Of a stretch of 64,000 nt of DNA, positions 16,444-17,880 are shown one piece after another (position 1 is the stretch's first letter; the number at the start of each line of letters is the position of its first letter). Under the pieces are notes generated by a model that did not search any database, was not told the DNA's origin, and saw only the letters and a list, made by a program, of their open reading frames with translations. Source of the DNA: a virus; the IMG/VR virus record IMGVR_UViG_3300031853_000023, positions 7,254 through 71,253 of that record, one strand, 5' to 3'. The translations under genes and the position numbers were made by a program.

Positions 16444-17880
16444 TTACTGATTATTTATTTTCCCCGTCACCATCACCTCCGCCGGCTGAACGCTCGTCCC
16501 TACCGATATAGTATTGCTGCCGACCGTCGGGGTCAGCGCCGGAAGGGTAACGTCCGCCGTGGTGCCGTCTGCGTTATACCGTTTTTGTGTGGCAAAATCT
16601 ATGTAGTCGGGGGTGTCGTTCGTTACCGTAAGCTCAGTCGAAACGTAGGCCTTCCGGGTCACGCCGCCCAGAGTCACGGGTATCCTGCACATGCCGTAGG
16701 GTTCTGTATCAGCATTTTCAAGCTCAGGTGTTATGCTTATACGAAGGGTGGCGTTTACTGTATCACCTTCGTCAACGGACAGGTAAACATGTGATCGCTG
16801 ATAGATATTGTAACCGATCTCGAAAATACATTCGTCAAGTACTACATTGCCCTCGCCGGAATTCCATCTGTAGTAATAGCCGCCGTTTTTGGAGTTGAAG
16901 CCGTAATAATTTTCCACACCGTTCACCACAACTGGTATCCCTACCTTAACGCTACCCTCACCCATAAATTCAACATTCATGCGCCATTTGCCGTAGTACG
17001 CCGTGCCGAGCTGGTCATTATGCGAAGAACCCTTCATCAGGAAATAGAAAGAGCTGTTGTTGAAGGTATTCGCCCCGGCAGAAGCTGTTCCGCTGACACT
17101 GACTGTCATGTCGCTGTTTACCGTGAAGGTTACATTCCCTTCCGTGGTGCTCCTGCCGACACCAGGGAATGTACATATATTTGCTGTATCATCACCCACT
17201 GCCCCGTCGGTTTTTACATATACGTGGAGGTCGGATACATCCGACGGGGTTATGGTGCCGAAATCAGCCTTGAATAAAGTAATCATCCCATACCCACTAT
17301 TAGTCGCAGTAAAAATAAAATCCTGTTCGTTCAGACCCGTACTGCCTGCATTGCCACAATACGCGGTGGGTTGAGAATAATTTATGAAGTGATTCTTTGT
17401 TTGTTGCGTAACAAGTGAAAACCGGAAATTCGTATAATCGCTTATTCCCACCGTATAGGTTTTTCCACTTATAATCGGAAACCAGTATGCGGATGAAACG
17501 CGGTCACTTCTACCCATATAATTTACATCGCCTGCGGTATACGGTCCACCCTGATAAAATCCCCCGAAGAAAATATTCCTCTGCCCCGTTCCTCCGTACA
17601 CGCGCCAGTTTGAAAGCGTGGAATCCTCCAAGGAATTGAAGGTTAGGGGAGGTGTATCGGTAATCGTGACGGGAGATAAAGACGATATAGGCAGCGCTTG
17701 ATGAATATTATAGTTTTTTGAGATATAGGGTGCGAAGAAATCAATTTTTTGTCCTCTTTCTAATAATGGGCATAATGTTCTTTCATATTGTACAAGGCTC
17801 ATATCTAAAGGAGTAATTAAATATTGATTCTCAAGTCCAGTATATCCATTTTCAAAATCATATATATTATATGTGTGCAT
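16444..17880 (-). CDS. Tail fiber / receptor-binding protein. AT-rich N-terminal anchor fused to a GC-rich (about 50% GC) C-terminal domain. No TAG codons.
   Basis: A 478-aa standard-code ORF. RBS AAAAGGAGTGAAATAATA then ATG. Sharp GC shift around 17400. G/T/S-rich beta-sandwich-like sequence. Confidence 0.6.
   Translation of the reverse strand: MHTYNIYDFENGYTGLENQYLITPLDMSLVQYERTLCPLLERGQKIDFFAPYISKNYNIHQALPISSLSPVTITDTPPLTFNSLEDSTLSNWRVYGGTGQRNIFFGGFYQGGPYTAGDVNYMGRSDRVSSAYWFPIISGKTYTVGISDYTNFRFSLVTQQTKNHFINYSQPTAYCGNAGSTGLNEQDFIFTATNSGYGMITLFKADFGTITPSDVSDLHVYVKTDGAVGDDTANICTFPGVGRSTTEGNVTFTVNSDMTVSVSGTASAGANTFNNSSFYFLMKGSSHNDQLGTAYYGKWRMNVEFMGEGSVKVGIPVVVNGVENYYGFNSKNGGYYYRWNSGEGNVVLDECIFEIGYNIYQRSHVYLSVDEGDTVNATLRISITPELENADTEPYGMCRIPVTLGGVTRKAYVSTELTVTNDTPDYIDFATQKRYNADGTTADVTLPALTPTVGSNTISVGTSVQPAEVMVTGKINNQ

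Follow-up and report, generated by a model that had tools for sequence, protein, structure and literature searches.

The minus-strand gene at positions 16444..17880 of the window, that is, of the whole 64,000-nucleotide stretch of viral DNA analysed here (IMG/VR record IMGVR_UViG_3300031853_000023, positions 7,254 to 71,253), very probably encodes a chimeric tail fibre of a phage that reads TAG as a sense codon, with a C-terminal part that was captured from siphoviruses of the standard genetic code and is swapped as a cassette. This putative receptor-binding gene has 478 codons, an ATG start with a ribosome-binding site (RBS; AGGAG) 8-9 nt upstream, a TAA stop, no in-frame TAG, and the homologues P0001-P0009. 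Its native module (17670..17880, minus strand; 27-31% GC) comprises about 70 codons with a Ser-rich linker at the end, and would presumably serve as the virion-attachment anchor that docks the fibre on the tail. At a '(V/I)T.T(G/D)TPPLTF' motif, this module is fused in frame to a foreign segment of 1,314 bp (16356..17669, minus strand; 48.1% GC), which holds the C-terminal 409 codons of the fibre, a 7-nt donor spacer and the 5' end of a donor holin gene.

The composition of the gene changes abruptly between these parts. Measured over intervals of 200 nt, GC is 40-58% from ~16400 to ~17700 and 22-33% on either side, the whole window having 29.5%. The first 60 codons (17701..17880) have 27.2% GC, the window upstream of the block 27.3% and the window downstream of it 29.7%, and GC at third codon positions is 0.53 in the C-terminal part versus 0.24 in the N-terminal part. 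A first-pass annotation of the DNA had described a C-terminal stretch of about 1 kb with about 50% GC behind 60 AT-rich codons, and had proposed to plot GC and codon usage along the gene. The values reproduce both the high GC and the AT-rich start, while the foreign stretch is actually about 1.3 kb long and the native part extends over about 70 codons rather than 60. A structured RNA or tRNA island was also considered as the source of the GC-rich patch and rejected: Rfam (gathering thresholds) returned 0 hits and ARAGORN 0 genes in the whole window, and the patch is covered by one long open reading frame (ORF) under purifying selection.

The long late genes of the window are open only when TAG is taken as sense, as judged from coding coverage and ORF lengths under alternative stop sets, and the neighbouring late ORFs of 968, 3,149, 1,566 and 1,038 codons contain 19, 69, 28 and 14 in-frame TAGs, respectively. 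At ~2% TAG per codon, ~9.6 TAGs would be expected in 478 codons and the Poisson probability of finding none is ~7e-5, a value that overstates the case because the fibre protein is poor in Gln. Among Gln-type codons, TAG accounts for 130 of 470 (28%) in the neighbours, 0 of 15 in the fibre ORF (P ~0.008) and 0 of 11 in the cassette alone (P ~0.03). Conversely, CAG makes up 7 of the 11 Gln codons of the cassette versus ~7% in the neighbours. The uninterrupted, TAG-free ORF of 478 codons inside a TAG-dense late operon, from which the earlier annotation had started, is confirmed by these counts. Since many early genes of the window are also TAG-free, the notable point is the absence of TAG within the late block.

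Protein searches with the fibre retrieved P0001 (447 aa, 89% identity) and P0002 (443 aa, 84% identity), both of which cover just the C-terminal 84-85% of the query. At the DNA level (blastn), positions 17669..16356 of the window are 89.0% identical to positions 10119-11433 of contig L001 over 1,315 bp, and positions 10107-11321 of contig L002 are 82.6% identical to the cassette, the last 152 bp of which also match L002 12497-12647 at 91%. Outside these segments, the L001 and L002 backbones have no similarity to the window region. The two contigs have 40% and 47% GC, respectively, and their genes were called without TAG read-through, in the standard code. In L001, the fibre homologue follows a tape-measure gene, a Prophage_tail gene (PF06605) and an ORF of ~110 aa, and is followed by a Phage_holin_4_1 holin and a GH25/CW_7 lysin. 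In L002, the order is capsid, connector, tape measure, Sipho_Gp37, an ORF of ~110 aa, the fibre homologue, ORFs of 96 aa and 274 aa, holin, CHAP lysin, serine recombinase and a lysogeny-type module. The C-terminal part of the fibre is homologous to tail genes of otherwise unrelated phages, and in these donor-type genomes the gene occupies a tail-module position after the tape-measure and Sipho_Gp37/Prophage_tail genes and before holin and lysin. The N-termini of the window protein, P0001 and P0002 are unrelated up to the common '(V/I)T.T(G/D)TPPLTF' motif, so that one cassette is seen on three different backbones with the breakpoint at the same place. The proposal that a domain from a standard-code donor of higher GC had been fused to a native AT-rich N-terminus is borne out by these donor-type genes, at 89% and 83% nucleotide identity on contigs of 40-47% GC. 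Searches of INPHARED (megablast of the 8-kb region, tblastn of the protein and megablast of the donor locus L002) gave no match to known phages.

On the right-hand side, donor homology runs past the fibre stop (16444), spans the donor spacer, covers ~27 codons at the start of the donor holin and ends directly ahead of AAGGAGG, the native RBS of the following gene in the window. The 31-codon ORF found here (16341..16436, minus strand; MTMENKGLQAVITAAVTAFVLYFNSLTKGGK) is a truncated holin remnant, made up of ~27 donor Phage_holin_4_1 codons, 4 native codons and a native stop. The holins of L001 and L002 are full length, with 160 aa and 156 aa and matches to PF05105 at E 4.5e-31 and 7.5e-33, and the Pfam domain (~116 positions) corresponds to residues 17-137 of these donor proteins. 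With ~27 of ~160 codons, the remnant has the same start as a Phage_holin_4_1 (PF05105) protein but lacks the Pfam domain region, and so is not a member of the family. Because the siphoviruses have the whole holin gene and the window just its start, the transfer went from a siphovirus to the recoded phage, and GC content and codon style agree with this direction. The small ORF had been suspected of being a co-transferred chaperone or assembly factor and proves instead to be a passenger fragment. The following ORF (16111..16338, minus strand), the last of the operon, was likewise thought to have come along with the cassette; it is native, with 75 codons, 32.5% GC, two in-frame TAGs and the strong RBS AAGGAGG, and its homologue stands directly after a 79-codon ORF in the cassette-less relative L008. 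Its match to PHROG is weak (E 0.005).

Alternative cassettes and recombination history

Searches with the N-terminal 70 aa and with the upstream fragment found five related contigs (L003, L007, L008, L010 and L011) and one identical copy. In the five relatives, the flanks are 87-95% identical to the window at the nucleotide level and the N-terminal ~70 codons are kept, joined to one of three other cassettes or to none. The module itself is 79-95% conserved in these relatives, contains in-frame TAGs in L007 and L008, and has no counterpart in the donor-type proteins, whose own N-termini (20-45 aa) are unrelated.

L003 is 95% identical to window positions 18712..17670 and 87% identical to 16462..16009, with a different cassette of 46-50% GC in between. 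The protein encoded by this second cassette is 37% identical to that of the window and 46% identical to P0004, which belongs to a further standard-code locus, one that has an r1t-type holin and a GH25 lysin. L007, whose flanks are 88% identical, has a third cassette that is 60% identical to the one of L003 over the available part, and an in-frame TAG in the native linker. L010 and L011 (flanks 87-88% identical) share a fourth cassette, which has just its two ends in common with that of the window. In L010 (1383..2762), this cassette has a GC fraction of 0.36-0.44 and one in-frame TAG, at a variable loop position that is uninformative on the encoded residue, followed by 251 open codons up to the conserved C-terminus. 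L008 (87% identical) matches window positions 20076..17670 and 16354..15791 and has no cassette: its 79-codon ORF consists of the N-terminal module and a short end (SSSSSEDDGEISTG, followed by the stop), and then come the native RBS and the 75-codon ORF. Close relatives hence have a common N-terminus and divergent C-termini joined at the same point, and the comparison proposed in the first-pass annotation, with related phages in which another C-terminal domain follows the junction, yielded four different cassettes and one cassette-less allele. The IMG/VR scans and both JGI metagenome scans gave no further relatives, a genome scan with the close group returned nothing, and a second genome scan gave just two distant matches to the C-terminal module.

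L003 and L010 also retain a holin remnant, and their right-hand junction is identical to that of the window; being common to all three, this junction points to one ancestral capture of the fibre, the spacer and the holin 5' end. In that event, an ancestor would have gained the donor fibre, the spacer and ~27 codons from the start of the holin gene, and illegitimate recombination just ahead of the native RBS of the following gene presumably created the right junction. Since then, the PPLTF region on the left and, on the right, the conserved 3' end of the fibre with the holin remnant have probably acted as homology arms, through which C-terminal cassettes would be exchanged when the phage meets prophages or co-infecting phages in a common host. 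The present cassette of the window is probably the product of such a later replacement.

Both arms were compared with the donors in this respect. The right arm has 0 mismatches in 67 positions relative to the L002 holin start over 16450..16384 and 8 in 29 over 16383..16355 (Fisher p = 3e-5), so that the latest crossover falls within the older remnant. On the left, L010 is a closer match than the donors for ~17 nt past the junction, beyond which the sequence is donor-like; with the small counts involved, this is suggestive of a crossover within the older resident arm. The latest replacement, with crossovers inside the older resident arms, may thus extend over 16384..17652 (minus strand). A second, shorter fibre-like gene (274 aa) is present in L002 at 11735..12559, just before the holin, and its last ~60 nt together with the holin start are identical over 67 nt to the fibre 3' end and holin remnant of the window. 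This identity suggests that the right arm of the window came from a gene arrangement like that of the 274-aa gene and holin of L002. Amelioration of the cassette is slight, with 48.1% GC compared to 49.4% and 50.5% in the donors. A search for repeats within 15800-18400 gave no flanking direct or inverted copies that would point to a mobile element or a site-specific mechanism. Likewise, tblastn found no template-like repeat of the cassette elsewhere in the window, where no search aimed at a diversity-generating retroelement was made.

The state that preceded the capture depends on how L008 is read, and we lean somewhat towards regarding it as the empty site before insertion. Both of its breakpoints fall within <=6 nt of the limits of donor homology: on the left, L008 has 'SSSSSED' in common with L003 and diverges exactly at the donor-like start, and on the right the divergence sets in precisely at the native AAGGAGG. 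The fibre may have originated when a foreign adhesin was fused to a stand-alone virion protein of 79 codons, L008 representing the pre-insertion state. The alternative, to which we give somewhat less than an even chance, is that the phage always had a full-length native fibre of this family, that L008 arose by internal deletion and that a native homologue was displaced by the foreign DNA. In the L008 ORF, the nine final codons (GAC GAT GGG GAA ATA TCA ACA GGG TAA) indeed align in frame with the family C-terminal codons (GTG ACG GGG AAA ATA AAT AAT CAG TAA), with an 8/9-nt match at GGG-AAA-ATA, and an anchor-only protein of 79 aa has no obvious role. However, this short in-frame similarity was noticed post hoc and could be due to chance, and a deletion would require two coincidences, as both breakpoints would have to fall by accident <=6 nt from the limits of donor homology.

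Being in the standard code, with no in-frame TAG and a TAA stop, the donor genes are read correctly in the recoded phage with no adjustment. In a tentative and rather doubtful extension of the cassette-exchange scheme, the holin fragment and the PPLTF motif would form a fixed docking site, by which a virulent, TAG-recoded phage repeatedly takes up ready-made receptor-binding cassettes from standard-code prophages of its Gram-positive hosts, with the genetic code acting as a one-way valve. TAG-free prophage genes would work at once in the recoded phage, and a cassette with TAGs, as in L010, could not flow back.

Putative function and origin of the cassette

The fibre ORF is intact and in frame, the dN/dS ratio (nonsynonymous to synonymous substitution rates) of the cassette relative to L001 is 0.21, with dS 0.32, and 40 synonymous versus 16 nonsynonymous changes fall on the window branch, which includes time in unsampled donors. 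The gene is therefore functional and under purifying selection.

Judging from the canonical position of the gene in the donors and from the extreme C-terminal diversity on a conserved N-terminus, the fibre is probably a receptor-binding protein. A profile search of 1.84 billion representatives gave 1,982 relatives at E <= 1e-3, most of which have in common a C-terminal module of ~90 aa that is often repeated within long proteins. Searches of Pfam and PHROGs gave nothing significant for the protein, 8 homologues and 7 long family members, and a profile search of PDB sequences gave nothing; one weak match to a PHROG 'tail protein' occurs in the family. The AlphaFold2 model is poor (pLDDT, predicted local distance difference test, of 48.5) and displays an all-beta protein with a disordered N-terminal region of 130 aa. 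Fold searches with this poor model returned weak, generic similarities to beta-sandwich and carbohydrate-binding module (CBM) folds, including the CBM of a phage Dit protein. What the sequence comparisons demonstrate is the foreign origin of the cassette, the direction of its transfer, the junctions, the existence of multiple alleles and purifying selection. With no family match and a poor structural model, we infer receptor binding from gene position and from the pattern of diversity; the cassette may affect host range, and the N-terminus may have an anchoring role.

Several observations weigh against the reading of the gene as a captured host-recognition fibre. Neither Pfam nor PHROG nor PDB sequences yielded a match that would identify the gene product as a fibre or receptor-binding protein, and all the relatives are short metagenomic contigs. 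The window copy shows weak AT-drift, with 41 strong-to-weak (S>W) versus 24 weak-to-strong (W>S) changes, which is not clearly different from that of L001. In addition, the nearest sampled donor-type gene is at dS 0.32, so that the true donor is unsampled and 'recent', as initially proposed, is a relative term for the cassette as a whole, although the last 67 nt of the transferred block are identical to a donor. Finally, the L008 backbone exists without the domain, so that the primary adhesin may be another protein and the fibre an accessory.

In line with this last point, the acquired domain might decorate the virion, bind glycans or have some other accessory role, or be tolerated cargo, and have no part in host recognition. 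The family has no sequence or structure match to a characterised receptor-binding protein, a cassette-less relative exists, and the 953-aa protein encoded upstream could be the main adhesin. Such a role nonetheless appears unlikely, as the donor genes stand at the canonical site that separates the tail-tip genes from the lysis cassette, extreme allelic diversity behind a conserved N-terminus, as seen here, is typical of host-recognition proteins, the gene is under purifying selection, and the weak fold matches are to carbohydrate-binding beta-sandwiches including that phage Dit CBM.

Capture in the reverse direction, by siphoviruses from a recoded phage, could be entertained inasmuch as the true donor is unsampled and identity alone gives no direction. 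It is very improbable in view of the holin start, complete in the siphoviruses and truncated in the window, and of the 48% GC of the cassette, which fits the siphovirus contigs (40-47%) and not the 29.5% of the window. The cassette also has no TAG and uses CAG for Gln, unlike the native late genes, and the four contexts examined (L001, L002, L004 and the 274-aa gene of L002) in a family of ~2,000 representatives are all standard-code loci of higher GC. Least probable of all is a metagenomic misassembly that joined a Clostridia prophage fragment into an AT-rich contig, for which the abrupt compositional step at both ends and the 89% identity of the cassette to a different kind of phage might speak: it is ruled out by an independent contig of a different assembly (L009, ENA) that is 100% identical to window positions 19880..16203 (3,678 bp) across both junctions, the same left junction occurs in L003, L007, L010 and L011 and the same right junction in L003 and L010, all from other samples and with cassettes other than that of the window, and the in-frame fusion keeps an ORF of 478 codons.

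Probable hosts and genomic surroundings

The endolysin of the window (36925..38514, plus strand; four in-frame TAGs) has GH25, CHAP and wall-binding domains according to domain matches. Over the C-terminal 320 aa it shares 55% identity (E 7e-121) with the CHAP lysin of donor L002, and at the wall-binding end 45% with the lysin of L004; in INPHARED, the wall-binding domain matches solely lysins of Gram-positive phages. The lysis genes of the donor siphoviruses are also of a Gram-positive type. For the L001 lysin, matches at 41-46% come from phages of Lachnospiraceae, Streptococcus and the like, and the sole genome-contig matches of the fibre family are in one Ruminococcus and one Clostridia metagenome-assembled genome. 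From these sequence similarities, recipient and donors plausibly share Gram-positive, probably Clostridia, hosts, as would be needed for an infecting phage to recombine with resident prophages.

The distribution of TAG in the window is that of a TAG-recoded (code-15-like) phage, with 19-69 in-frame TAGs in each of the late genes and none in the replication genes, which encode topoisomerase II, NAD-ligase, DnaB-like and Dda-like helicases and DNA polymerase. One late ORF that is open by read-through lies at 3781..8481 (plus strand; 1,566 codons, 28 TAGs). Despite this heavy in-frame use of TAG, ARAGORN found no tRNA gene, and so no suppressor tRNA(CUA), within the 64-kb window. An identical 169-aa fragment (P0012) is recorded on a contig of 76.7 kb, so that the genome is larger than the window and a suppressor tRNA may lie outside it. 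The holin remnant of L003 (2290..2380) has one CAG to TAG change plus many C>T and G>A changes, apparently foreign DNA in the course of adapting to a recoded phage. In two standard-code homologues, the positions of the four TAGs in the GH25 lysin of the window are occupied by E, E, S/E and E. Both this alignment and the CAG to TAG change in L003 would be compatible with a polar residue such as Gln at TAG.

The fibre ORF is the second gene downstream of a tape-measure-like ORF of 3,149 codons with 69 in-frame TAGs (21146..30595, minus strand), which puts it in the tail module. The tape-measure assignment was read by eye from length, position and coiled-coil-like sequence and, if it holds, an unusually long tail would be implied. 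Directly downstream of this ORF and upstream of the fibre is the 953-aa late protein (17899..20760, within the 968-codon ORF 17899..20805, minus strand; 19 in-frame TAGs), a candidate tail-tip or tailspike protein that, from its position, may be the attachment point of the fibre. It has no Pfam or PHROG match, and beta-helix-type repeats were suspected in it by eye alone. A 165-aa ORF at 14979..15476 (plus strand) is a paralogue of its N-terminal ~160 aa (26% identity, E 1e-11), that is, a second copy of this N-terminal module, without TAG and convergent with the gene at 17899..20760 (minus strand).

A terminator-like hairpin at 16040..16090, bidirectional, with a perfect 23-nt inverted repeat, a 5-nt loop and flanking A and T runs, marks the end of the fibre operon and is the meeting point of the minus-strand late block and a plus-strand RuvC-like gene. 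The latter (15531..16040, plus strand), a RuvC-like Holliday-junction resolvase with four in-frame TAGs and a match to PHROG 827 (E 1.5e-18), converges on the fibre operon at this common terminator. Farther away, the block at 11974..14400 (plus strand) is TAG-free with GC raised to 34-42%, beside TAG-rich plus-strand late genes, and could be foreign or early-expressed; the sole PHROG match of ORF 12730..13518 in this block is to a family of unknown function. At 30704..33277 (35-39% GC), two ORFs overlap, one at 30752..33253 (plus strand) with 833 codons, 0 TAG and no PHROG match, the other at 30704..32710 (minus strand) with 668 codons and 4 TAGs. Inside the otherwise TAG-free replication region, the ORFs 48695..49597 (GIY-YIG nuclease domain, Pfam E 1.6e-9; 12 in-frame TAGs), 42251..42946 (GIY-YIG-like motif by eye; 5 TAGs) and 49973..50671, all on the plus strand, are possible homing endonucleases in recoded style.

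Relation to known systems

The receptor-binding proteins of the lactococcal 936 and P335 phages and of Streptococcus thermophilus siphophages have a conserved N-terminal shoulder and an exchangeable C-terminal head, and the adhesion modules of S. thermophilus phages are reportedly the subject of a review. The fibre described here resembles these proteins of Gram-positive siphophages in its conserved N-terminal attachment part and very divergent C-termini among close relatives, in the location of the donor gene between Dit/Tal and lysis genes, in recombination at a conserved boundary and possibly, to judge from weak fold matches, in a beta-sandwich or CBM-like fold. It differs in that there is no sequence or confident structural similarity, that the recipient is a large, AT-rich, TAG-recoded phage rather than a small siphovirus of the same group, and that a piece of the donor holin gene was dragged along.

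Mosaicism of tail fibres is also known from the fibre segments of P2, Mu, P1, lambda and T-even phages and from the swapping of gp37/gp38 adhesins among T-even phages. In those mosaics, as here, C-terminal segments are common to otherwise unrelated phages, both temperate and virulent, and the breakpoints lie at conserved motifs. In contrast, the present case involves another protein family and Gram-positive hosts, and no chaperone was co-transferred, the downstream ORF being a gene fragment.

In TAG-recoded phages of the gut and rumen, TAG is concentrated in late and lytic genes, and the survey of these phages describes recoded clades predicted to infect Firmicutes (bioRxiv 10.1101/2021.08.26.457843; PMC9523058). 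The window agrees with these phages in its TAGs in structural and lysis genes, its TAG-free replication genes and the prediction of a standard-code host, and differs from them in having no suppressor tRNA in its 64 kb. The main text of the preprint (bioRxiv 10.1101/2021.08.26.457843) contains none of the terms 'tail fiber', 'horizontal' and 'recombination', and so does not discuss the capture of TAG-free cassettes. The hosts of recoded phages are mostly just predicted, and here an uncultured recoded lineage is tied to Gram-positive, probably Clostridia, hosts through two independent gene sets, fibre and endolysin. The case further shows that genes flow from standard-code phages to recoded ones without adaptation, and it offers a small series for the drift of foreign genes towards an AT-rich, TAG-using style, from the cassette of the window (48% GC, no TAG) to that of L010 (36-44% GC, one TAG).

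Compared to these systems, the fibre gene represents an unusually clean natural capture of a host-range module, for which the donor type, the junctions to within a few bases, a hitch-hiking fragment, several alleles and a possible empty site are all at hand. It reveals no new mechanism and is a neat rather than a surprising case: taken as a whole, it corresponds to the known modular exchange of receptor-binding proteins, and its unusual part is the crossing of a genetic-code boundary together with the holin fragment left behind as a 'fossil'.

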